A stretch of 64,000 nucleotides of DNA from an uncultured Planctomycetota bacterium (GTDB lineage: Bacteria > Planctomycetota > Planctomycetia > Isosphaerales > Isosphaeraceae). Shown in pieces: positions 34,475-49,956 of the stretch (position 1 is the stretch's first letter; each line of letters opens with the position of its first letter). The notes under the pieces were generated by a model. The model worked only from the letters and a program-made list of their open reading frames with translations. It did no database searches and was not told the DNA's origin. Both the position numbers and the translations under genes were made by a program. The stretch spans positions 263,571 to 327,570 of the forward strand of contig CAWJTV010000027.1 in NCBI GenBank assembly GCA_963845755.1, read 5' to 3'.

Positions 34475-34845
34475 GGCATCCTCCTACGTGGCTCTCCGGG
34501 AGATGGTCCTTGCGGAGGGAGTAACGGATTCGAAAAGACGATCAGAACACACGTCTGGCAACAAATCGATCCACTGGTACACTGAACTCGACCATCCGGT
34601 TGATCGTGTCACGATCGAAGTGCTGTTTGGATTGTGTCGGCTGGAGGCCCCTCGCAGTCAATTCGTTCGCAAGTTGTTGTCGACCGGCTGGATCGGTGGG
34701 ATCGTTCACGTTGTCTGCCCAGCCCGGGAAGCCTTACGGCGAACGTCCGATCAAATACCTATCATACCGTTCGATCTCCAGGTCGTGAACCGGTGGGGTT
34801 CTTGCCGATTCGAAACGGGTAAACCAGCAGGCATTTACGGCTTGT

Positions 34846-35767
34846 TCAGCCCTCCGGAGCCGGCTCGATCACAAGGTCCAGCGCCAGGTCCAGCGCCGGC
34901 GCCGAGTGGGTCAGCGCACCGACGCTGATCCGATCGACTCCCGTGGCGGCCAGGGCGCCCACGGTCTCCAGAGTCACGCCGCCGGACGCCTCGAGGTGGA
35001 TGGCCGGCGCCACGGCGTCGCGACGGCGCACGGCCTCGGACACCCGCTCCGGTCCCAGGTTGTCCACGAGGATGATATCCGGCCCGCATCGCAGGGCGAC
35101 GTCGAGCTGTTCGAGTGAATCGACCTCGACCTCGATGATCGTCCCCGACGGCGGCGTTGGCCCGCGCCGTGGCGACGGCCGCGACGATCGGGTCGGCCGC
35201 TCCGGGCCCGGTCGCCGACCGGAGCCACGCCAGGTGGTTGTCCTTGATCAAGACGGCGTCGTACAGGCCGAAGCGGTGGTTGAACCCGCCTCCGCACCGC
35301 ACGGCGTACTTCTCCAGCGCCCGCCAGCCGGGTGTCGTCTTTCGCGTATCGTAGATCGCCGCGCGGCTGCCGACGACCGCCGTCACGTACCGCGCCGTCA
35401 AGGTCGCGATCCCGCTGAGACGCTGGAGGAAGTTGAGGGCCGTCCGTTCCATGGCCAGCAGCGACCTCATCGGCCCGTCCAAACGTGCGACCACCGTCCC
35501 CGGCTCCAGGCGATCTCCATCGGCCTGATACGACGTCCACCCTCGGAACAGCTCGAACTCCGCGGCCAACCGCTCGACGACCGGCAGACCGGCCAGCACG
35601 CCGGACGACCGCGACACCAGCCGTCCGGCACCGAGAGCGTCGCGCGGTATCGTCGCCGTCGACGTGATGTCCCCGAACTGGCCCAGGTCTTCCGCGATCG
35701 CCGGCGCGAGCAGGTCTTCGAGGTTGCGCCGCTCCCGCTCGCCGAATTCGTATCGAGAACGACTCAT
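34846..35767 (-). CDS. nadC: Nicotinate-nucleotide pyrophosphorylase (quinolinate phosphoribosyltransferase); frameshift near 35145
   Basis: EDLG..GDITS, ERTALNFLQRLSGIAT, DTRKTTPG, NHRFGLYD..LIKDNH, EASGG, ISVGALTHSA. Confidence 0.96.
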
Positions 35768-35819: not shown

Positions 35820-37771
35820 TCATTCCGGAGGTGCGCTCACCTCCACAACGGGCAGGGCGTCGAACGGCTTGAGCCGATGGTCGGGGAGCGTATTATCGTG
35901 GACCAGCAGGCTGCTCGGACCGGCAAAGAACGTCCGCGACCCGGCGACGTCGAGGTTGTAGAGGGGCTGGACGGTGTCGGGTTCGATCGAGGCGACCTGG
36001 ACCAGGCCGCCGACGGTGCGGAGCGTCTCGCCCGTCTTGAGCTCCCGGGCCATGGCCCAGCCGACGTTGGCCCGCCAGAACCGGTGATAGACGCTGCATA
36101 CCAGCGACTCGCCGTTGGTGAGCGCGATGCGTAAGGTCTTGCCGGGCGGGTTATGGTGCACGAAGACCACCGGCTGGAAGCTCAAGGCCCCGGTGGCGGC
36201 ATCCTGGCTGAGGACCTGGTCGCCGGCGTGGATCGCCTCGATGTTCCGGAATCCGTCGAGCGTGCGGACCGGCGTGCCGGCGGCGAAGCAGGTCGTGATA
36301 TACGGGGCCGGGCGTTGGGATGGCGAGGCGTTCTGCTGGAAAACCACCTGGCGAGGCGCCTGGTAGCTGTAACCCAGTGTGTCGTACCACCAGACGTGCC
36401 AGGCGTCCTCGTCGTCCTTCAGGTCGGCCGGCGCACCCGCGGCGACCTCGAGCACCGGGGTGACCCGGGCGTTGTTCTCATCCGCCTGCTGGTTGAGCAC
36501 CTCGACCGCACTGAGGTCAGCGGCCATCCGCTGCTGCACGACCGTCGCCTTGATGTGGGCCTCGGCGATCATGACCGCCGTGCGCACCTCGATGTCGTGC
36601 AGCTTGTTCGGGTTCATGCCGCGGTCCAACTCCCGGCCCTGGACGATGACCGGCAGGCCGTTGTCATCGTAACCGGCATAGCCGCGGAACGTCGCGGCCG
36701 GCTGGAAGACCGCCGGCGCGTCGTAGGTCAGGATCATCCGGACCCGCGGCGTGTCCAGGACCAGCGCCCCGGTCGAGCCCGGCCCTTCCACCGGCTTGAT
36801 CGTATGGCGGATCTTCGCATGGATCATCTCGATCAGGGGGCCGGCGTAGTCGCGCCGCGGCCGCGCCCTGAGGATGCCGATCGCCATCTGGCGGACCGTC
36901 TCCACGCCGCTCATCACGGCCATTTCGGCCAGGGCCCGCGAGGATCGGGGATCGTCGATCTGGCCGAGCAATTGCACCCGCAGCGCCTGCTCGGCTCCCG
37001 ACCCGCCCGCGGCGAAGACCTTGAGGATCGCGGGGACCGCGCGGGGGTCCGTCACGGCCGCCAATTGCTCCCGGGCCTCCGCCCGATGAGCCGCGGAGGA
37101 AGACGGATCGCCCAGCCAGGTCTTCCATTTCTTCAGGAGCGGCTCCCAGCGGTGATTCGCCTGCCGCTGCTCGCGCTCGTCGCGATCGTCCGCGGCGGCC
37201 TGCTCGGGGCTCAGCCACCGCCCGTTGCGCTTCACCCATCCCAGGTGCCGCCAGGACTTCTCGCGGTACGGGTCGAGGTGGACGGCCGTCGTGAAGTGGG
37301 CCAGCGCCTCGGCCTTCAGGCCGTTCTTCTCGCACCAGAGCCCGAGGCGGTGATGCGCCTCCGCCAGCTCCGGATAGCCCTGCAATCGGGCGTTGACGGA
37401 GTCCTCGATGGTGGAGAGCCTGGCCCGCTGCCCCTCGTACTCGGCCAGCTTGGCCGCCCGCTTCTCGTCGGCCTTGAGCCGCTCGCCGATCCTGTCGGCC
37501 GACTCCCAGCGGCCGCCGAAGGCGACCAGTCCCAGCAGCCCGCGCCCGTCACGTTCTCGGGGTCGGACAGGATCGCCTGCGCCAGGTGCTTGACCCGCTC
37601 GGCATCCAGCCCATGCGCCTCGCACCATAGCGCCAGTTTGAGTTGGGCCTGGGAATCCGTTCGCGCCTTGGCCTTCAACGCTCGATACACTTCGAGATCG
37701 CGGGACGAGTCGGGTGCGGCGCCCACCAGGGCGATCAGCAGACCCGCGGAGAGCAATGCGACGTGGACCAT
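35820..37771 (-). CDS. Secreted protein with helical/HEAT-like region and C-terminal Hint domain, copy 1; frameshift near 37550
   Basis: Signal peptide MVHVALLSAGLLIALVGA; Hint from CFAAGTPV to LYNLDV..TFFAG..LLVHDN. Confidence 0.88.
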
Positions 37772-37876
37772 GGTCCCAACCTCCTGGGGTGGGTGAGATC
37801 GGGCGTGGATTTCAGCCCATTCTATGCAATCACCAAGGATCTTTTCAATGGATTCGGGACGCGCGGAATTGACTTC

Positions 37877-39883
37877 TCATTCCAAAGGAACGGCCACTTC
37901 CACCACGGGCAGGGCATCGAACGGCTTGAGGCGATGGTCGGGCAGCCTGTTATCGTGCACCAGCAGACGGTTGTTCCCCACGAAGAAGGTACGCGGCCCG
38001 GAGACGTCGAGGTTGTACAGCGGCTGCACCGCGTCGGCCTCGACCTTGGTCACCTTGGCCAGGCCGCCGACGGTGCGGAGGGTATCGCCGGGCTTGAGCT
38101 CCCGGGCCATGGCCCAGCCCTGGTTCGCCCGCCAGAATCGGTGATACACGCTGCACACCAGCGACTCGCCATTGGCGAGCGAAACCCGCAAGGTCTTGCC
38201 GGGCGGGTTGTGGTGCACGAAGACGACCGGCTGGAAGCTCAACTCGCCCGTGCCGGCTTCCTGGCTGAGGACCTGGTCGCCAGCGTGGATGGCCTCGATC
38301 GCCCTCGGCCCGTCGAGCGTGTGGACCGGCGTGCCGGCGGCGAAGCAGGTGGTGATCGACGGGGCCGGTGTCTGGGCTGGCGTCGCGTTCTGCTGGACAA
38401 CGATCTGGCCCCGCGCCTGGAAGAAGTAGCCCGCTTGGTCATACCACCAGGCGAGCCAGCCGTCCTCATCGTCCTTCAGGTAGGGCGGCCCCCCCGCGGC
38501 GATCTCGAGCACCGGGAGGACCCGGGCGTTGTTCTCCTCAACCTGCAAATTGTGCATCGCGACGGCGTTCAGGTCGGCAGCCATCCGCTGTCGCACGACC
38601 GCCGCCTTGATGTTGGCAGCGGCGATCAGCACCGCCGTGCGCGCCTCGACCTCACGGAGCTGGCTCGGCATGATGCCGTAGTCCAGCTCCCGGCCCTGGA
38701 CGATGACCGGCAGGCCGTTGGGGTCCAATCCTACGTAGCCGCGGAACGTCGCGTCCGGCTGGAAGACCGCCGGCGTGTCGTAGGTCAGGATCAGCCGGAC
38801 CCTCGGCGTGTCGAGGATCAGCGCCCCGGTCGAGCCCGGCCCGAGTAACGGCTTGATCGTCGGACGGATCTTCGCGCGGATCATCTCGACCAGCGGACCG
38901 GCATAGTCGCGCCTCGGCCGCCCCTTGAGGGTTTCAATCGCCATCCGGCGAATCGCGGGCCGGGCACTGAACACGGCCAACTGGGCCAGCGCCCGCGAGG
39001 ATGAGGGATGATCGATCTGGCCGAGCATCTCCACGCACATCGCCTGCTCGGCCTCCCTCCCGCCGACGAGGAAGACCTCGAGGATCGCGGTCACCGCGTG
39101 GCGGTCCGTCACGCTCGCCAATTGCTCCTGGGCCTCGGCGCATCGCGCCACGGAAGACGAGGGGTCCGCCAGCCAGGTCTTCCACTTCTTGAGGAGCGGC
39201 TCCCACAGGCGATTCGCCTTCCGCCGCTCGTCCGCCTCGCGTTCCTCCGCGGTGGCCTGCTCGGGGCTCATCCACCGGCCATCGCGCTTGACGTAGCCCA
39301 GGTGCCGCCAGGACTTCTCGCGCGTCGGATCGAGGTGGACGGCCGTCGTGAAGTGGACCAGCGCCTCGGCCTTCAGGCCGTTCTGCTCGCACCAGAGCCC
39401 GAGGCGGTGATGCCCCTCCGCCAGCTCCTGGTAGTCCTCCAATCGCTGCGCGTACGCGGGATCCGTCCCGCCACTGGCCCTTCTGCCGTTGTCCTCGCGC
39501 CTCCGAATGGCGTCCTCCATGCGGGAGAGCCTCGCCCGCCGCCGCTCGTATTCGGCGAGTTTGGCCGCACGACCCGCGTCGGCCTTGATCCGGTCGCCGA
39601 CCGTATCCGCGGACTCCCACCGGCCGCCGAAGGCGACCAGCCCCAGCAGCCCGCGCGCCGTCACGTTCCCGGGGTCGGACAGGATCGCCTGCGCCAGGTG
39701 CTTGACCCGCTCGGCATCCAGCCCGTGCGCCTCGCACCAGAGCGCCAGCTTGACCTGGGCCCCGGCATGATTCCCCGCCTTCGCCTTCAACGCTTGATAC
39801 GTCTTGAGATCGCGGGACGAGCCGGGTGCGTCGCCGACCAGGGTGATCATCAGGCCGGCCGAGAGCAACGCGACGTGGAGCAT
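37877..39883 (-). CDS. Secreted protein with helical/HEAT-like region and C-terminal Hint domain, copy 2 (tandem paralogue)
   Basis: Intact 668-aa ORF; same architecture; CFAAGTPV..SVYHRFW..LLVHDN. Confidence 0.9.
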   Translation of the reverse strand: MLHVALLSAGLMITLVGDAPGSSRDLKTYQALKAKAGNHAGAQVKLALWCEAHGLDAERVKHLAQAILSDPGNVTARGLLGLVAFGGRWESADTVGDRIKADAGRAAKLAEYERRRARLSRMEDAIRRREDNGRRASGGTDPAYAQRLEDYQELAEGHHRLGLWCEQNGLKAEALVHFTTAVHLDPTREKSWRHLGYVKRDGRWMSPEQATAEEREADERRKANRLWEPLLKKWKTWLADPSSSVARCAEAQEQLASVTDRHAVTAILEVFLVGGREAEQAMCVEMLGQIDHPSSSRALAQLAVFSARPAIRRMAIETLKGRPRRDYAGPLVEMIRAKIRPTIKPLLGPGSTGALILDTPRVRLILTYDTPAVFQPDATFRGYVGLDPNGLPVIVQGRELDYGIMPSQLREVEARTAVLIAAANIKAAVVRQRMAADLNAVAMHNLQVEENNARVLPVLEIAAGGPPYLKDDEDGWLAWWYDQAGYFFQARGQIVVQQNATPAQTPAPSITTCFAAGTPVHTLDGPRAIEAIHAGDQVLSQEAGTGELSFQPVVFVHHNPPGKTLRVSLANGESLVCSVYHRFWRANQGWAMARELKPGDTLRTVGGLAKVTKVEADAVQPLYNLDVSGPRTFFVGNNRLLVHDNRLPDHRLKPFDALPVVEVAVPLE

Positions 39884-40004
39884 GGCCCCAACCCCCTGAC
39901 GCGGGCGGGAAAGGTGATTGATTCAACGTCATCTTATGGATTCGAGCCGGAGTTCGTCAATGCATCGGTGCGGAGACGATTGCGATTGGCGCCCCACGGC
40001 GCGA

Positions 40005-42644
40005 TCAAAGCTCCCGATATTTCTCCTCGAACATCGCGACGCCGCAGCCGGAGTGGAATCGCCAGATCTTCATCCAGCGCATTTCGGGAGGCATCGCGAG
40101 GGTCTCGGCCACGGTGAGCCGCGCCCAGTTGGTCCGATCGTTGACGTCGAGGGTCCGGGCCGGCGGCAGGCTCTCGACCACCTCGACGGCGGTCTTGGGG
40201 TCGATCAGGGTGAGCGCCAGGATCACGGCGGGGATGATGTCGTTGCCGTCGCGGAGCGAGCGGCTGCGCACGTACGCCGCGATCGGTTCGAAGAGCATCA
40301 TGGCCACGTCGCGGTCGTATCGGCACAGGAGCAGCACCTCGGCGGCGAGCGGGTCGTCGCGGCCGAAGTCGCTGCGCGGGTCGTCGCCCGGCGCGGTCAG
40401 GGCGACTCCCCGCCAGAAGACCTCCGCGACCCGCTCGGGCGCGATCCGTTCGACCAGGGGCAGGATCGAGCCGGCAGGGTTCGGGTCGTAGACGTCGGAC
40501 GCGTTCCGACGATCGATGCCGTCGATCTCGCGCAGGGCCTGGTCGAGTGCGGCGGCGGCACCGGTGCGGTCGCTCGTTGCCAGGCCATCGGCCAGGAATG
40601 TCCAGGCATAAGCCCGGTCCGGGGCGTTCGGCAAGGAGGCCGCGATCCGCTTCGCCCGCGGTAGGTCGTTGCGGACCAGCCGCCGGCAGATCCGCGGCGC
40701 ACCCCAGATCCGCCAGATCGGCTCCTCGAGCTGGTTCAGCACAGCCTCGGACTCGGCCGGATGCTCGTACGCCAGCCGGATGGCGATGTTCCCGTAGATC
40801 CGCTGCCGCCATCGCATCGGCCCGACGTCCTTGATCAGCGACAAGGCGGCGTCCGGCTCGACCCGTGCGAGGTGAGCCGGGAACGAGCCGGCATCGGTGC
40901 GCTTCTGAGGCGGCAGCGTCTCCACCAGCTTGCGGCCCTCGGTGAACAGCGCCCGGGCCTTGTCCGATTCGCCCAGCTCGAGCCAGCGCTCGGCGACCTC
41001 GCCCATCTGGAACAGCTTGTTCGAAGACAGCACCGCGGCCCGCGCCTGGAGCGCGGCGCGGTCGAGTAGGGCGAGCTTGCGCGCACGGTCGTCGGCCGGC
41101 GTGAGGTCGGCCAGGTTGACCAGCGTACCGGCACGAGAGGCGGCGTTGGCGATGGTCTCGGCGATCGCGGCAGCCTCTTCCGGATCGTCGGCGACGAACG
41201 CCAGCGCGGCCTGGCCGCGCAAGTAGTCGGCCGTGGTCTCGCGTTCGAACGTCGTCTTCTGCACCTGTTCCAGGAGCGCGGCCGGATCCAGCCACCGCAG
41301 GATCTTGAGGCTCCACAACTTGGCCGCGTCGTCTCCCTTGGCAACGACCCGCTTGAGGTAAGGACCGAGCACCCGTCGCGCCAGCACGCGGCTCTCCTCC
41401 TGCGGGATCGGACCGGGGAGCGTTGCCATCATCCGATCGGCCGGTTCGCCCGGCCGGTTCAAGGTCAGCTCGACGGGGCCGGGATTCGTGTCGTCGATCA
41501 AGGCCCCTCCGAATCGGAACCCTTCTCCGCGCGCCAGGAGGATCGACCGGCCCGATCGGACAGCCCCGAGCTGGAACCGGCCGACCGCGTCGGTCGTCGC
41601 CGACGGACCGTCGCCCGGCGGGAAGACCTGGACCGACGTGATCGGTCGCCCTTGACGATCGACGACACGGCCGGTGAGGGTCCGCAACCTGCGGACGGTC
41701 AACGGCGGCATCGCGTTCGATTCGCCCCGAAGCGTGATCCAGTCGGAGATCGCCGCCGCGTACCCGGCCGACCGGACGACCAACCGATACGTCGATCCGG
41801 CCCGGAGCAGGGGAGGGGTCTGGAACGAGCCGTCCGCAACCGTCCGGACCGGGCCCGTGTCGAACCGAACGGCTTCCGGGATCACATAAACCGAGCGCCC
41901 GGCGCCGGTGGACAGGCCGCACCGGACCCAGACCTCGACCGCGACCCCCGGAATCGGTGCGCCCGACTCATCCCGGACCGCGCCAGCCAGTCGTGCGGGA
42001 CGCCCCAGTGAGAGCGACGCCTCGTGTTTCCCCTCGGCGTAGAGGAGCATCGCGACCTGGGCGCCCCCGACGGCGACGGACATCCGGACGCTCCGCAGGT
42101 CGATCCGACGCGTCAGGCCCGGCAGCGACGCCACACCCCGGTCATCGGTCACGGCCGTCAGCCGGTCGTTCCAGTCGTCGGGGACGGTCACGCCCAGATA
42201 GCCGGTCCGCTCCGTCTCACCGAGCCGCGCGGCCGTCTTGAGACCGGCGATCGGCTTCCCCTCGGCATCCCGGATCGTCACTCGACGCAACTCCTGGGGT
42301 TCCAGCACCAGCCGATGGACCTGGTCGGGCCGATCGACCCGGATCAGGTCGACGACGTCCAGTCCCAGACCCGCCTTGTAGGCCCAGACCACCCCCGGCG
42401 CCAGGAAGCCACGCCGCCGATCGGCCGACGGTCGATCGAGCCGGAACGCCCCCGCGGCATCGGTCGCCGTCGTTGCCAGGATCGGGACCGAGCCGTCGGG
42501 CGCCTCGCCCGCGGTGAAGACGACCTCGGCCCCCGCGATCGGCCGCCCCGAGGGATCGACGACAGTTCCGGTAATCGCTGGGCCGGCCCCGCTCTGCCCG
42601 ATCAGCAGGATCGCCGACCACAACGATACTCCGAATGCGCCCAT
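40005..42644 (-). CDS. Secreted protein with carboxypeptidase-regulatory-like beta domains and a helical C-terminal half
   Basis: Signal-like N-terminus; repeated GxVVDxxGRPI.G..V..ATTDA.G.F units. Confidence 0.78.
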   Translation of the reverse strand: MGAFGVSLWSAILLIGQSGAGPAITGTVVDPSGRPIAGAEVVFTAGEAPDGSVPILATTATDAAGAFRLDRPSADRRRGFLAPGVVWAYKAGLGLDVVDLIRVDRPDQVHRLVLEPQELRRVTIRDAEGKPIAGLKTAARLGETERTGYLGVTVPDDWNDRLTAVTDDRGVASLPGLTRRIDLRSVRMSVAVGGAQVAMLLYAEGKHEASLSLGRPARLAGAVRDESGAPIPGVAVEVWVRCGLSTGAGRSVYVIPEAVRFDTGPVRTVADGSFQTPPLLRAGSTYRLVVRSAGYAAAISDWITLRGESNAMPPLTVRRLRTLTGRVVDRQGRPITSVQVFPPGDGPSATTDAVGRFQLGAVRSGRSILLARGEGFRFGGALIDDTNPGPVELTLNRPGEPADRMMATLPGPIPQEESRVLARRVLGPYLKRVVAKGDDAAKLWSLKILRWLDPAALLEQVQKTTFERETTADYLRGQAALAFVADDPEEAAAIAETIANAASRAGTLVNLADLTPADDRARKLALLDRAALQARAAVLSSNKLFQMGEVAERWLELGESDKARALFTEGRKLVETLPPQKRTDAGSFPAHLARVEPDAALSLIKDVGPMRWRQRIYGNIAIRLAYEHPAESEAVLNQLEEPIWRIWGAPRICRRLVRNDLPRAKRIAASLPNAPDRAYAWTFLADGLATSDRTGAAAALDQALREIDGIDRRNASDVYDPNPAGSILPLVERIAPERVAEVFWRGVALTAPGDDPRSDFGRDDPLAAEVLLLCRYDRDVAMMLFEPIAAYVRSRSLRDGNDIIPAVILALTLIDPKTAVEVVESLPPARTLDVNDRTNWARLTVAETLAMPPEMRWMKIWRFHSGCGVAMFEEKYREL

Positions 42645-42899
42645 GCCTCGTATCCTCTCCCGTCTCCCAGGCGGCTCGACCGCCCGCGAGGCCGATCCCG
42701 ACGCTAGCTCCCAGGTTGAATCGTACAAGCGTCATAGGAGCGACGTCAATCGAATCCTCCACCTTCAATCGGATCCGGCCAACTGGCGAACCACGCAAGG
42801 GAGCCCCGGTTTTCCCGCGCAAGCCGGATTTCTTTGCCACTTCGCCCGCGACGACCCTCTATGATGGGGACATCAGTGAGGACCGAGGGAGTGATCGCC

Positions 42900-45573
42900 A
42901 TGGCGACGGCATTCCGGTCGGGTACGCTGGGATTGATCCGACACCTGTTCGAATCGGGTACGTGCACGGGTTTATCCGATGCCCGGTTGCTGGAGCGGTT
43001 CGTCACCAACCAGGACGAGGCGGCGTTCGCCGCGCTGGTGGCGCGGCACGGCGCCCTGGTGCTGAACACCTGCCAGGCGGTGTTGAAGGATCCGAACGCC
43101 GCCGATGACGTCTTCCAGGCCACCTTCGTGCTGCTGTTCCGCAAGGCCGGATCGATCCGCGGCCGGGATGCGCTGGGAGCCTGGCTGCACCGGGTGGCGT
43201 ACCGGACCGCGCTCGAGGCCCAGTCCGCCGCGTCTCGCCGCCGGGACGTCGAGAAGGCCGCGGGCGTGTTGCGTGCCGCCGAAACCCGGACACCCGACGA
43301 TACGGCCGCGATCCTGCACGAGGAGATCGAGCGGCTCCCCGACCGGTTCCGTTTCCCGATTATCCTTTGCGACCTCGACGGGATGACCCGCGACCAGGCC
43401 GCGGATTATCTGGGGTGGACCGAAGGCTCGGTGCGCGGCCGGTTGGCTAAGGGCCGCGCGCTGCTCCGCCGCCGGCTGACCCGCCGCGGTGTGACGATGG
43501 CCGTCCCGCTGGTTGTTCCATCGGGTCTTCCGGAAACCCTGGTCGCGACCACCCTCCGCGCCGCGGCCGGAGACGTGCCTGGCTCGGCCTCGGCACTCGT
43601 CTTGAGGGCCTCGCGCGGGTGGCTCCTGGCCCGGTTCCTGGTCGCCGGTGTGGTCCTGTTAACCTTGGGAACCGTGGCTGCTCAGTTAGGCGCAGGTCTC
43701 CCGACATCGGAAGGGTCGCCTCGCAGGCTCGAACCCAGGATCGCCCAGACGCCGGTCGCTGTCCCCAAGATCCAGCCGCCACCCCCCGTCACCGCGAAAC
43801 CAAAGGCCCCCCAGGCGAAGGCCGCGGCCCCCAGGACCGGGCCGCCGGTCGTCGAGGGTCGCATCCTTGACCTGGAAGGACGGCCGATCGCCGGTGCATC
43901 GATTCAGGTGAAATACGTTCAGTCGCCCCCGGATGGCAAGTTCGAAGCCTGGATCGACGAGGTCAAGCGATTGGGAAAACAACCATTCGGACTCCCCTAC
44001 GTGCTGATGCCGAGCCAAGGGCCATCCGCTCAAAAGCTGGCGCAGTTCGTCCTGGCGAACCTCGGCCTGCGGAGGAAGGGCCCGGATCTCTCTGCAACCA
44101 CCGGGGGCGACGGCCGGTTCCGTCTCGAGAACCTGCCCCGCGACGGCGTTGCCACCGCATCGATCACCGGTCCGGGGATCGAGACATCTGAAGTGTACAT
44201 CCTGACGCGCGCCATGCCCACGTTTCGCGTCAAGAACCCGATCGTCGCCGATGGTCCGATGATCGTCTACTACGGGGCGAAGTTCGACCATGTCGCCGCG
44301 AGGACGCAACCCATCGTCGGCACCGTCCGCGACAAGGACACCGGCGCCTCGATCCCCGGCGTCCATATCACCGGTATGCCCAACATTCCCAACAGCATGA
44401 TCCCGACGCAGGGCATCGAGGCGACCACGGACGCCCAGGGACACTATCAGATCGATGGTCTTTCCACCGCGCGTGGGTTCAAGCTCTTCACCGAGGCACC
44501 GGCCGGCCAGCCTTATGTGAACGGCGGCTTCATCTCCCCGGCGGGTGAGCCCAAGCCCGGCCCGTTCCCCTTCGACATCACCCTGAAGCCAGGGGTGCTG
44601 GTTCGCGGCACGCGTGACCAACAAGGCCACCGGAAAGCCCGTCACAGGCGCAGGAAAGCTTCCCACGTGCTTCGTGGAATACTACGCCTTCGCGGACAAC
44701 CCGTTCCTCGACGAGTTCCCGAACTTCAAACGGAATAGCCAGATCACTCGCGTTTACATCTCGGACCCTGAGGGCCGGTTCACCATTCCGGCGCTGCCCG
44801 GTCGCGGCCTGATCGGCGTCCGAGGGCCCGAGTACGAGGGTTACCTTCACGGCCGGGGCGCCGACGCCATCAAGGGCTTCGACAGACAGATGGACGCCTT
44901 CAAGACATACCCGAGTTATTGCCCGGCGTCCGACAAGCACGTCTTTGGCGAGATCAACCCGGCACCGGGAACGAAGGAGATCTCCCTCGAACTCCAGTTC
45001 GACCCCGGCCGATCGGTCAAGGGCACGATCGTCGGCCCGGACGGTCAGCCCATCGTCGGCGGCGTTGACGTCCGCACCCTCGACGTCTTCCAAGGTGTCC
45101 AGCAGACGCCCGGCGACGCCGCGACCTTCGAGGTCAAAGGGTTGCCCTCGGGCCCTTACCGCCTCGACTTCTTCCATCACGGCCGCAAACTCGCCGGCTC
45201 GCTCCGCCTGAACGGCGAGGAAACGGGCGGCCTCACCGTGAAGCTTCAGCCCTGGGGTGCTGTGGTCGGTCGAGTGGTTGACGCGGAGGGCAAGCCCCGG
45301 AATGATGTGACGATCTCCGGAGCACTTTCGATCCAACCCGATCCCGAGCGGGGCATGCTCGACAACCAGACGACGGTGGACGCCAAGACGACAGTGGACG
45401 CCCAGGGCCGGTTCCGAATCGAGGGGCTCGTCCCGGGCGTGAAATACGACGCGAACGGCGGCTCACCGAACTGGAACGACGGACTCGTCCTGAAGGATGT
45501 GATGGTCGGACCGGGCGAGGTGAAGGACCTCGGGGATCTCAAGCTCCCCCGGACGAAGAAAAGCGGGAATTGA
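42900..45573 (+). CDS. ECF sigma-70 factor with transmembrane segment and long carboxypeptidase-regulatory-like C-terminal extension; frameshift near 44612
   Basis: SDARLLERF..DEAAFAALVARHG..DDVFQATF..WLHRVAYR (region 2); LHEEIERLP..GSVRGRLAKGR (region 4); hydrophobic segment then GRILDLEGRPIAGA repeats. Confidence 0.88.
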
Positions 45574-48930: not shown

Positions 48931-49956
48931 GTGACGACTCGGCGGAAGAATGGCTGGCGAATCGTGATGGGAATGGCGATCGTCGGGGTTGCGACCACCT
49001 CGCCATCGACGTGGGCAGGGAGCTTCACACCGGGTGATATTCTGGTCTCATCGACCACAGACCTCCAGACGAGCATCTTGCGCGAGTACACGCCGACCGG
49101 CACCCTCGTCCAGAGTTTCTCGGTGCCCATCGCTCCCGGTGGGGACTCTTACATCCGAGGCATTGCCACCGATACCTCGGGTAATGCTCAGATCTACAAC
49201 GGGACGTTTAATCCGTACTTGACGACGCTCAACCCCACAACCGGCACGTTCTCGAATTACACCACCAGCGGCTGGAGCACGATCAACGACATCTATTTTG
49301 GCGGTGTTGTCGTCAACGGCAATTACGCCTACGCGACGGATATGGCCACCAACAATTCCGGCGGCAGTCCGAATGGAATCGTTCGGTTCAACCTGACTGA
49401 CTTCTCGGCGACGCGGTTTGCCTCGGGGCCGGCGAACGGATCGGGCGATTATACGATGGTCGGCCTGGGACTCAACGGCTCGCTCTACGCCCCGTGGCCG
49501 GGCGGCAGCCCCGTGGGAGACCACATCGACGTGATCAACCCCGTGTCGATGACCAAGACGACGATCACCCTGCCATTTCTGTTCCAGGTCTCGGGTGTTA
49601 CGGCCGACCAATTCGGCAACATCTACGCCGTCGGCGCTTTGGGCGATGGGCATATCTATAAGCTGGACAGCAACGGCAACGTCCTCGCCAGCATTAACAC
49701 GGGTTTCACCGACCTCACCGGCCTGCAGCTATCGAACTCGGGGCAGTTGCTGACCGCATCTTCCAATGGTGAGGTCATCCTCACCAACACCACCTTCTCT
49801 CAATTGAGTTCATTCAGCGTGGGCTCACAAATTACCACATTCGACGCATTCGTGACCCCGCCGACCGTCTCGTCCGTGCCGGAACCGGCGAGCCTGACGC
49901 TCATGCTCATCGGCCTGGGAGCCGGTGCATTCCGCATCAGTCGCCGCCGGTACTGA
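48931..49956 (+). CDS. PEP-CTERM sorting-domain protein (beta-propeller-like)
   Basis: Signal peptide; C-terminal VPEPASLTLMLIGLGAGAFRISRRRY. Confidence 0.92.
   Translation: MTTRRKNGWRIVMGMAIVGVATTSPSTWAGSFTPGDILVSSTTDLQTSILREYTPTGTLVQSFSVPIAPGGDSYIRGIATDTSGNAQIYNGTFNPYLTTLNPTTGTFSNYTTSGWSTINDIYFGGVVVNGNYAYATDMATNNSGGSPNGIVRFNLTDFSATRFASGPANGSGDYTMVGLGLNGSLYAPWPGGSPVGDHIDVINPVSMTKTTITLPFLFQVSGVTADQFGNIYAVGALGDGHIYKLDSNGNVLASINTGFTDLTGLQLSNSGQLLTASSNGEVILTNTTFSQLSSFSVGSQITTFDAFVTPPTVSSVPEPASLTLMLIGLGAGAFRISRRRY

Follow-up and report, generated by a model that had tools for sequence, protein, structure and literature searches.

Hint domains are known in several functional types, namely inteins, the Hedgehog/Hog proteins, the A- and B-type BILs and the pretoxin Hints, and it is largely the last residue of the domain that decides its function. 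That Hint domains carry out thioester chemistry at their N-terminus is established, as is the behaviour of BILs (PMC4031507). According to the same account, A-type BILs need no +1 nucleophile for splicing, and the terminal Asn is replaced by Asp or Gln in some inteins, variant cases that still splice; Asp itself can cyclise in some of them (PMC4031507). BIL-A domains are described from proteins that are not conserved, where they sit in variable regions (PMC4031507, PMC7765530). The Hedgehog thioester is instead resolved by an external nucleophile (PMC2362128, PMC7765530); an active-site Asp or His of Hog is reported to activate the adduct (PMC7765530), and D46 is named in the title of PDB 6tyy. 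A BIL-type Hint can also move its upstream domain to a lysine of another protein through an isopeptide bond, as reported for BUBL BIL2 (PMC8616854). Here we analyse a planctomycete protein family in which the Hint ends in an invariant Asp followed by a short extension, and we compare it with these systems.

Results

Two tandem genes with a shared layout

According to the ORF list of the window (the whole stretch of DNA analysed, 64,000 nucleotides), positions 35820-39883 are occupied exactly by two tandem minus-strand genes, designated para1 and para2, which are 105 nt apart and whose proteins are 71% identical. Their features are as follows.

37877..39883, minus strand: para1, intact 668-aa gene with signal-like N-terminus, TPR/HEAT-like body, Hint and tail
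39818..39883, minus strand: para1 residues 1-22, N-terminal hydrophobic segment, probable Sec signal peptide or signal anchor
38381..39817, minus strand: para1 residues 23-501, body, from AF2 secondary structure and profile matches
38348..38380, minus strand: para1 residues 502-512, Pro/Thr-rich linker ending in Thr512, the -1 residue
37952..38347, minus strand: para1 residues 513-644, Hint (Cys513 to Asp644), with block-B Ser578..His581-Arg582, block-F Asn624 and block-G His643-Asp644
37880..37951, minus strand: para1 residues 645-668, tail or cap, with N645, R646, P654, F655, D656 and A657, then LPVVEVAVPLE
39931..39960, minus strand: sigma-70-like promoter match upstream of para1, a consensus match only
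35820..37771, minus strand: para2, second copy with one frameshift
37541..37546, minus strand: para2 frameshift site, 1 base short of para1 (GACGG-GCGCGGG), a 1-nt gap in the DNA alignment
35895..36290, minus strand: para2 Hint, Cys447 to Asp578 of the 602-aa ORF
35823..35894, minus strand: para2 tail (NTLPDHRLKPFDALPVVEVSAPPE)
37819..37848, minus strand: sigma-70-like promoter match upstream of para2, 10/12 positions, a consensus match only

The scan for sigma-70-like promoters returned 4 sites where 0.3 were expected. A sequence-only reading of this DNA had described a pair of tandem paralogues. Two such genes do fill the interval, but para2 is split, its signal-peptide part being out of frame with the rest: that part, with the first repeat, belongs to ORF 37316-37771 and the remainder to ORF 35820-37628, with a 1-nt deletion relative to para1 at 37545/37546. 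Read in the old frame, codons 1-75 of para2 still have a dN/dS value of 0.46. Because the neighbouring nadC (34835-35767), which adjoins para2, is frameshifted too, near a G-run at ~35140, assembly indels are the likely cause, and the para2 frameshift is probably an assembly error. A programmed frameshift was also considered and set aside, given the frameshift in nadC and the broken family genes at many long-read MAG loci. Every motif quoted in the sequence-only reading is present at the positions given there, and TT|CFAAGT, SVYH(RFW), LLVHDN and LPDHRLKPFDALPVVEV all occur in both copies. The tandem pair is a lineage-specific duplication.

A planctomycete family of probably exported helical proteins

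One search returned 542 family matches, and another gave 316 cluster representatives at 50% identity (E <= 1e-30). The records in which the family was seen are from Planctomycetota only, mostly from Isosphaeraceae. The genes often form tandem arrays, with 2-5 diverged paralogues in each. Among sequences with the Cys1 motif, 242/259 also match the body; the other 17 are 16 short sequences (<=395 aa) and one unrelated protein. As judged from these matches, the family has a single conserved architecture. Export is suggested by a hydrophobic 11-mer within the first 45 aa of 165/170 full-length members, in none of which a further TM-like segment was found.

That the body would be helical and HEAT-like is borne out by the AF2 model of para1 (mean pLDDT 90.9) and by a profile search that matched TPR and alphaRep/HEAT proteins, while Pfam TPR_2 and HEAT_2 matches in the body stayed below the cut-off. 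The modelled secondary structure shows a pair of TPR-like units, marked by LWCE..GL motifs and beta-hairpins, as well as HEAT-like repeats, a small beta region at 340-396 and a long helix at 406-461. Residues 502-511, just before the Hint, are the sole segment with a pLDDT below 50. A search of the ESM Atlas with the body as query and Hint families excluded returned only unnamed or HEAT-repeat planctomycete clusters and no functional lead.

The Hint domain ends in an invariant Asp

Both copies match Pfam PT-HINT (PF07591), para1 with 53.9 bits (E 2.9e-14) and para2 with 55.4 bits (E 1e-14), above the curated gathering cut-off of 27.7 bits. In NCBIfam no family-specific model was found; intein (TIGR01445) and TPR matches fell below the cut-off. 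The invariant positions in an alignment of 150 sequences, reaching down to 38% identity, are C513, F514, T518, H581, R582, N624, H643, D644 and D656, and the retention of Cys1 and the block-B His that had been read from this locus thus holds across the family. The same set from C513 to D656, with F655 in addition, is invariant in 44 sequences of Hint plus tail. The block-F position that is His in 2lwy varies in the planctomycete family, where R, D, S and H occur. Of 302 sequences, 175 carry S at the -1 position, 91 carry T and 28 carry A.

The Hint had been read as ending 'VHDN' instead of VHN. This was a mis-parse: it is the invariant D644 that occupies the position of the terminal Asn, both against 2lwy (in pairwise and profile alignments) and against all five of five long PT-HINT proteins of the HN type. 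N645 is Asn in 253/280 sequences and F, H, Y, T or V in the other 27, and these 27 retain every other conserved residue. In a regular-expression parse, HD was found in 292/306 sequences, the lone HN belonging to an unrelated protein. A single-base change would turn Asp644 back to Asn, and that HD prevails with Asn one base away argues for selection for the carboxylate. Loss of the terminal Asn also argues against ordinary release of the pretoxin type.

A short tail of fixed spacing

The tail is 24 aa long in para1 and para2, which is also the family median. The sequence-only reading had called it nearly invariant; family-wide this is true of HD-x10-FD(A), while the rest of the tail is clade-specific, including LPVVEVAVPLE at the C-terminal end of para1. 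In the family tree, a quick tree with SH-aLRT support, 'LPDHRLKPFDALPVVE' marks the window's clade only. HD-x10-FD was found in 280/348 unique sequences, with T/S at 646 in 269 and P654 in 253 of the 280, and the spacing from D to FD is 10 residues in 277/306; residue 646 is Arg in para1, the intact copy.

Between para1 and para2, 17 tail codons hold 5 synonymous changes and 1 non-synonymous change, and dN/dS is 0.05 in the tail, the lowest of any segment, compared with 0.26 in the Hint and 0.59 in the body. By these ratios the extension is under strong purifying selection. Tail pLDDT was 88/92 in the full-length AF2 model and 82/79 with the Hint alone, models that also differ in alignment depth (150 and 44 sequences, respectively). 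Taken together, the fixed spacing, the lowest dN/dS and the confident placement indicate that this cap behaves as part of the domain and not as cargo. The somewhat lower tail confidence in the model without the body is an observation that counts against the mechanism favoured below. Predicting the complex of tail 639-668 with body 22-500 gave no verdict (score 0.00, mark 0.32) and speaks neither for nor against binding.

Housekeeping surroundings

In the window the genes have housekeeping neighbours (birA-like, nadC), and the only recurrent gene in all loci is the family itself. The absence of a toxin and of an immunity gene, as first read from this DNA, was upheld: the 24-aa tails hold no toxin domain, none was found in any family member, and the window has no small ORF on the same strand between para1 and para2 or beyond them, with nadC directly following para2. 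Clustering ORFs of at least 100 aa at 27 loci, a threshold that misses smaller genes, revealed no conserved small neighbour. PADLOC gave no defence-system match.

Housekeeping genes (HflX-like, TruB-like) recur as well, as do an exported beta-propeller-like protein near family genes at 7 loci and ECF-sigma-like proteins at 6 loci. In the closest loci, family genes are flanked by relatives of the following protein, which recurs at 4 loci:

40005..42728, minus strand: 907-aa exported protein with CarboxypepD_reg domains (Pfam CarboxypepD_reg E 2e-22) and a helical C-terminal half

Its cluster contains the window protein and ORFs in loci L001 (two), L002 and L004. None of these neighbours is convincing as a functional partner.

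Discussion

We consider it probable, from the conservation pattern and the structural models, that the last 156 residues make up a self-processing module, a Hint of the A-type-BIL/pretoxin lineage with a fixed-length cap that packs back on it. On the same grounds it seems rather likely that a thioester at 512/513 cuts the body from Hint and cap, and that Asn-cyclisation has been replaced by a step assisted by Asp and the cap. According to this mechanism, after export Cys513 and the block-B Ser/Thr-x-x-His would bring about an N-to-S acyl shift at Thr512, a small residue in the -1 position, and resolution of the thioester would sever the ~490-aa body from Hint and cap. Classical Asn-cyclisation, which releases C-terminal cargo, would not be used. 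Asp644, with Arg582 and Phe655-Asp656 of the cap, would serve the second step by activating or positioning the incoming nucleophile, the contacts of D644, R582, F655 and D656 with the active site being assumed here. That nucleophile could be water, giving simple maturation, or another acceptor, giving ligation; we hold the two to be about equally likely, and the conserved catalytic residues do not tell which is used. Should water resolve the thioester, the family would be a clean natural case of a Hint re-tuned to N-terminal cleavage only.

The sequence-only reading had suggested autoligation of the body to a lipid, glycan or protein. A more tentative proposal in this direction is that the HD-x10-FD Hint may act in bacteria, after Sec export, as the Hedgehog and BUBL ligases do elsewhere, with an external acceptor attacking the Thr512-Cys513 thioester. 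Asp644 and the cap would then position the acceptor, for which a cell-envelope amine or hydroxyl, a glycan, a lipid or a lysine of a paralogue from the same array are candidates. If so, the TPR/HEAT bodies would become covalently anchored or cross-linked without sortase or ATP, and the 2-5 anciently diverged paralogues, with cap types of their own, would be subunits of a covalent surface or periplasmic structure. Transfer to an acceptor would amount to a new, sortase-independent attachment or polymerisation of envelope proteins, and would make the module a compact candidate protein-ligation tool.

Unlikely, in our estimate, is a BIL-like chemistry at the C-terminal end, in which Asp644 would form an anhydride, or Asn645 would cyclise, so that the tail is cut off and either released or joined to the body. 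Joining would occur by splicing via Thr/Ser646 or by BIL-type aminolysis, in which the freed amino group attacks the thioester, with body plus tail as the mature protein. The closest solved relative, 2lwy, is a splicing-capable A-type BIL, such domains require no +1 nucleophile to splice, and Asp or Gln replaces Asn in some inteins (PMC4031507); moreover N645 (253/280) and T/S646 (269/280) resemble an N|T/S junction, and a conserved tail would be sensible as the C-terminus of a mature protein. However, the terminal-Asn position is held by the invariant D644 and not by N645, which is replaced in 27/280 sequences; Asn, the more efficient residue, never stands at 644 within the family; the block-F position, His in 2lwy, is not conserved; the tail is modelled docked on the Hint; and para1, the window's intact copy, has Arg646. 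When the family is parsed as an intein ending at D644, the +1 residue is N, F, H or Y, a non-nucleophile, and when it is parsed as ending at N645 the +1 residue is T/S in 269/280 and Arg in para1. It should be noted that the nearest relatives, A-type BILs and pretoxin Hints, do cleave at the C-terminus, and that this, like the cyclisation of Asp in some inteins (PMC4031507) and the resemblance of N645 and T/S646 to an intein C-terminal junction, counts against the self-processing module as we propose it.

It is highly improbable that the Hint is inert or purely structural, a folded C-terminal module serving, for example, in binding. The lost terminal Asn and the variable block-F position would suit such a role, but Cys1, the block-B Ser/Thr-x-x-His and their neighbours are invariant in 150 sequences with identities as low as 38%, and only S, T or A occupies the -1 position in 294/302, the pattern expected for an active N-terminal junction. 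Finally, decay from a polymorphic toxin, leaving pretoxin-Hint remnants stripped of toxin and immunity genes, is suggested by the PT-HINT match and by database names ('polymorphic toxin-type HINT domain-containing protein') but is rejected as scarcely credible, given one conserved full-length architecture (542 matches; 316 cluster representatives), a short tail that is conserved and not variable, genes under purifying selection, a window with housekeeping surroundings and without toxin gene, immunity gene or PADLOC matches, and HN-type relatives that look different where examined. The database label is corrected accordingly: the domain is annotated as a polymorphic-toxin Hint, yet none of that system's other parts accompanies it.

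Comparison with known Hint systems

In the literature searched there is no description of a fixed terminal Asp combined with a cap at the cargo-less end of an exported scaffold. The A-type BIL 2lwy of Clostridium thermocellum is the best sequence match to the planctomycete Hint (phmmer E 2e-9, profile E 8.7e-22) and ranks first in Foldseek (TM 0.90, rmsd 1.7 A, 30% identity). Like the family, it has Cys1, the block-B His and a 'YN' motif in block F, and no homing endonuclease; however, A-type BILs end in His-Asn, whereas the family has an invariant His-Asp and then the conserved cap, and its Hint forms the C-terminus of one conserved architecture, unlike BIL-A domains in variable regions. Pretoxin HINT proteins (PF07591) resemble the family in passing the Pfam cut-off, in their apparent export and in carrying the Hint near the C-terminus, but the five long relatives end in VHN with 73-124 further residues, in contrast to HD and a tail of median 24 aa, and the solved 8w20 chain (1368 aa) has HN and ~130 residues beyond the matched stretch.

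The second-best fold match is Tetrahymena BUBL BIL2 (PDB 6y75/6tmm; TM 0.81, 20% identity), which differs in being eukaryotic, in its flanking ubiquitin-like domains and in keeping a C-terminal Asn (crystallised as the C1A-N143A mutant). Inteins that end in Asp or Gln likewise have a non-Asn residue in the last Hint position; in the planctomycete family, by contrast, the Asp is fixed throughout, there is no evident host protein free of an intein, and the +1 position lacks a nucleophile.

The Hedgehog-like architecture proposed in the sequence-only reading stands as layout logic and fails as descent. The layout shared with Hedgehog/Hog begins with a secreted N-terminal domain, which is followed by a Hint that has Cys1 and T/S-x-x-H and lacks a terminal Asn, and then by a conserved C-terminal extension. 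In contrast, Hedgehog structures rank 36-37 in Foldseek, with 1at0 at rank 36 (TM 0.79, 16% identity), and the matches to Pfam Hint PF01079 reach 17.9 and 19.4 bits against a cut-off of 29.7. Hog is described as carrying a sterol- or adduct-recognition region (SRR/ARR; PMC2362128), where the family extension has only ~13 conserved residues; the family is bacterial, with no adduct known. The planctomycete Hint is closest to the A-type BIL and pretoxin Hints, and not to Hedgehog.

The tandem genes and their surroundings

The interval 35820-39883 is filled by two minus-strand genes, para1 and para2, which bears out the tandem pair of the sequence-only reading. Their products, 71% identical as proteins (database protein P0013), comprise an N-terminal body, a Hint domain and a short tail, and residue numbers below are those of para1. 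The genes and their relevant neighbours are as follows.

37877-39883, minus strand: para1, an intact 668-aa ORF
37316-37771, minus strand: ORF with the front part of para2 (from the ORF list)
35820-37628, minus strand: ORF with the remainder of para2 (from the ORF list)
34835-35767, minus strand: nadC (quinolinate phosphoribosyltransferase), adjoining para2, frameshifted
40005-42728, minus strand: exported 907-aa protein, upstream of para1, that has CarboxypepD_reg/Ig-like domains and is helical in its C-terminal half
42834-44738, plus strand: ECF sigma factor, divergent from the 907-aa gene, extended at its C-terminus by a long stretch that carries a CarboxypepD_reg domain
48931-49956, plus strand: PEP-CTERM-tailed protein with a beta-propeller repeat, about 9 kb off

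In the DNA alignment para2 has one base fewer than para1 at 37545/37546. Its first ORF holds the initial 76 codons, that is the hydrophobic N-terminus and first repeat, and codons 1-75 give a dN/dS of 0.46 against para1 when read in the old frame. Because the neighbouring nadC is frameshifted too (near 35120-35173, at a GGGG run around 35140, with its C-terminal half, GTIIEVEVDSLEQ..., carrying on in a different frame), the break in para2 is more likely to be an assembly indel than the mark of a true pseudogene. Sigma-70-like matches lie ahead of both para1 and para2 (four sites against 0.3 expected; these are matches to the consensus only).

The neighbourhood is that of an ordinary chromosome, with a biotin-ligase-like gene, nadC, a nucleoside symporter and a beta-CASP RNase, and the window gave no matches to defence systems. 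The PEP-CTERM-tailed protein points to an exosortase-type sorting system in this organism. Proteins related to the ECF sigma/CarboxypepD_reg protein lie near family genes at six loci including the window (the others being L008, L016, L024, L025 and L027), and proteins of the 907-aa type flank Hint genes with the NTLPDH type of tail both in the window and at the three closest loci in other assemblies, where these relatives are about 900 aa long:

L001: 5200-7836 and 12355-15165
L002: 12357-14893
L004: 12225-14804

A planctomycete family with a single architecture

A word-indexed search returned 542 relatives, nearly all of the best 120 being 640-690 aa long, and an exhaustive search with Hint plus tail returned 15,529 Hint proteins at E <= 0.001, with 316 representatives of 50%-identity clusters at E <= 1e-30. 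Where database names exist they read 'polymorphic toxin-type HINT domain-containing protein [Isosphaeraceae bacterium]'. A genome scan found 27 loci in 20 assemblies, Planctomycetota throughout, a taxonomic range that is a lower bound since the scan patterns were derived from the query. By title the loci belong to Isosphaeraceae (12), Singulisphaera (1), Isosphaerales (2), 'Planctomycetales' (4), unclassified Planctomycetota (7) and Planctomycetaceae (1, a weak TPR match only).

A body match accompanies the Hint in 242 of the 259 sequences with the Cys1 motif. Of the remaining 17, all but one are short (395 aa or less), and some of these 16 have as many as 242 unmatched residues upstream; the last is P0122, an unrelated protein of 1435 aa. 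No second full-length architecture was seen among the 259. P0122 itself has four tandem Hints ending His-Asn within its last 630 residues, with short spacers rich in Pro and Lys between them.

Pfam PT-HINT scores 53.9 and 55.4 bits in the two copies (cut-off 27.7), and the Pfam matches to Hint_2, Hedgehog-type Hint, TPR_2 and HEAT_2 all lie under cut-off. The full-length AF2 model of para1 (alignment of 150 sequences; mean pLDDT 90.9, pTM 0.73) predicts the following parts, the TPR and HEAT-like assignments being backed by profile searches of the PDB.

Residues 2-13: N-terminal helix
Body: a pair of TPR-like units, an 'LWCE..GL' helix and a beta-hairpin in each
Residues 245-334: HEAT-like repeats
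Residues 340-396: small beta region
Residues 406-461: 56-residue helix
Residues 502-511: disordered Pro/Thr-rich linker (pLDDT 38)
Residues 513-644: Hint
After the Hint: non-regular tail, its first 16 residues placed confidently (pLDDT 88-92)

The family proteins are probably exported, since 165 of 170 full-length relatives have a hydrophobic 11-mer within their first 45 residues and no further TM-like segment was found in the 170. Two cysteines of the repeated 'LWCE..GL' helices, Cys50 and Cys165 (about 39734-39736 and 39389-39391), show 90% or more conservation across the family and could form a structural disulfide or serve as functional thiols of the exported protein.

The His-Asp end and the tail

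Ten residues are invariant in 150 sequences reaching down to 38% identity with para1: C513, F514, T518, H581, R582, N624, V642, H643, D644 and D656. The catalytic ones among the ten were again invariant across 44 Hint+tail sequences, as was F655; V642 was not. Of 302 sequences, 294 have S, T or A just before Cys1.

The earlier reading had the domain ending in VHDN rather than VHN. Alignment revises this parse, placing D644 at the position of the terminal Asn of HN-type Hints: phmmer aligns LLVHD to VLVHN in the Clostridium thermocellum bacterial intein-like (BIL) domain 2lwy, the family profile agrees, and the H-N of 'VHN' falls on H643-D644 in all five long PT-HINT proteins compared. A regular-expression parse, which left 36 fragments unparsed, found the His-Asp end in 292 of 306 family sequences; most of the 14 exceptions are offset parses, and the single His-Asn is the unrelated P0122.

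Beyond the Asp, 253 of 280 tails have N at residue 645 (F in 19, otherwise H, Y, T or V) and 269 have T/S at 646 (Arg in para1); 253 keep P654, 279 keep FD and 196 keep A657. The spacing from Asp to FD is ten residues in 277 of 306. The family signature as read from these sequences is VHD-[N]-[TS]-x8-FD-A. Past it the tails diverge, for a median of 12 more residues (range 2-39). The nearly invariant tail of the earlier reading thus holds family-wide as this short signature, and the longer LPDHRLKPFDALPVVE is confined to the window's clade. Between para1 and para2, codons 645-661 show five synonymous changes and one non-synonymous (dN/dS 0.05, from a small count), therefore conservation at the protein level, against a dN/dS of 0.26 for the Hint and 0.59 for the body. 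From pLDDT (82/79 for the first two ten-residue blocks of the tail in the Hint+tail model against 88/92 in the full-length model, from alignments of unequal depth, 44 vs 150 sequences) we read the tail as docking mainly on the Hint.

In 7 of the 280 tails an extra R-S-[VM]-L-G-[RH]-like motif stands at the extreme C-terminus, well past FD; para1 and para2 do not have it. The paralogues concerned are:

L006: 6032-6547 and 8286-8801
L010: 9585-10139, 11834-12382 and 13972-14508
L012: 5050-5559
L025: 9213-9761

Paralogue arrays

Two to five family genes lie side by side at 10 of the 27 loci (L001, L002, L005, L006, L009, L010, L012, L015, L016 and L023), and one MAG has six copies (L001, L012 and L017). 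Array genes are broken by frameshifts at several of these loci, mostly in long-read MAGs. Split family genes were seen at L002, L005, L008, L015, L016, L018, L023 and L024, especially in long-read assemblies, and the database proteins P0270 and P0110 resemble tandem copies fused by read-through; caution is therefore due before any family gene is called a pseudogene. An exported protein of some 370-390 aa, which by eye resembles a beta-propeller, lies directly upstream of multi-paralogue arrays on the opposite strand at seven loci (L005, L006, L010, L011, L012, L015 and L023; for example L023 6500-7672, minus strand).

In a quick tree of 30 intact ORFs of at least 590 aa with a recognisable tail, fragments among some 90 matched ORF pieces being excluded, the tail types fall into clades. 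Eight rows of the NTLPDH type form one (support 99), and the main clades of the other types take in five of seven rows for HDF (support 100), four of five for NTLPxLRE (support 100) and seven of nine for NSxxxP (support 99).

Para1 and para2 are sisters (support 98), and the order NSxxxP, NTLPxLRE, HDF recurs at L006 and L012. Because tail types correspond to clades and the window copies are sisters, the tree indicates that arrays mix anciently diverged paralogues and that the window pair is a recent duplication.

A proposed mechanism

As described in the Hint literature (PMC4031507, PMC7765530, PMC2362128, PMC8616854), Cys/Ser1 and a block-B T-x-x-H give these domains an N-terminal (thio)ester, and in inteins, A-type BILs and pretoxin Hints the last Asn cyclises, cutting the C-terminal junction. 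In the present family the N-terminal chemistry appears intact, because Cys1 and S/T-x-x-H are invariant and the preceding residue is small. The Asn-cyclisation step seems to have been given up, because Asp is fixed though one base from Asn, the block-F position (His in 2lwy) is free to vary, and a 24-aa tail is all that lies downstream. The tail, fixed in length, under the strongest constraint and docked confidently in the models, appears to belong to the domain. On these grounds we consider N-terminal cleavage the likeliest outcome, and on balance expect it: a thioester at Cys1 would allow the body of about 490 aa to be severed from the Hint and its cap, with Asp644, Arg582 and Phe655-Asp656 serving to resolve it.

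Ligation of the body to an acceptor other than water, the original suggestion, is a tentative candidate with the balance against it; it would fit a Hint at the extreme C-terminus without cargo, the flexible linker before Cys1 and the multi-paralogue arrays. The main rival is that, as in BILs, the C-terminal junction is cleaved or spliced by way of Asp644 or Asn645. It draws on BIL ancestry and on the N-T/S pair at 645-646, yet D644 is invariant while N645 is replaceable, para1 has Arg646 and the tail is modelled as docked, and we regard it as rather improbable. That the Hint is inert, or the protein a decayed toxin, fits the conservation pattern poorly, making the first very unlikely and the second scarcely credible.

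Comparison with known Hint domains

With the Hint+tail model (pLDDT 91.6, alignment of 44 sequences), Foldseek ranks the A-type BIL 2lwy first (TM 0.90, rmsd 1.7 A, 30% identity), followed by the Tetrahymena BUBL BIL2 domain (TM 0.81) and then mini-inteins, whereas Hedgehog 1at0 and 6tyy come at ranks 36-37 (TM 0.79 and 0.78, 16% identity). Profile E-values are 8.7e-22 for 2lwy, 1.1e-19 for the Hint in chain 8w20 (1368 aa), which is HN-type with more sequence behind it, and 0.005 for Hedgehog. On this ranking of folds and profiles the domain belongs by descent with the A-type-BIL/pretoxin Hints and not with those of Hog type. Neither the family nor an HD-ended Hint was found described in a full-text literature search on BIL/Hint domains, planctomycete Hint proteins and Isosphaeraceae pretoxin Hints, the original BIL papers lying outside it; the Hint hits inspected were the best 150 of the 15,529, and HD-ended Hints on other scaffolds are possible.

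According to the same sources, some inteins carry Asp or Gln in place of Asn, Hedgehog has no Asn step and passes its acyl group to cholesterol with the aid of a C-terminal region, and BUBL BIL2 passes it to lysine (PMC4031507, PMC7765530, PMC2362128, PMC8616854). The interest of the family is mainly that it may show whether bacteria have a self-ligating module in the style of Hedgehog or BUBL.
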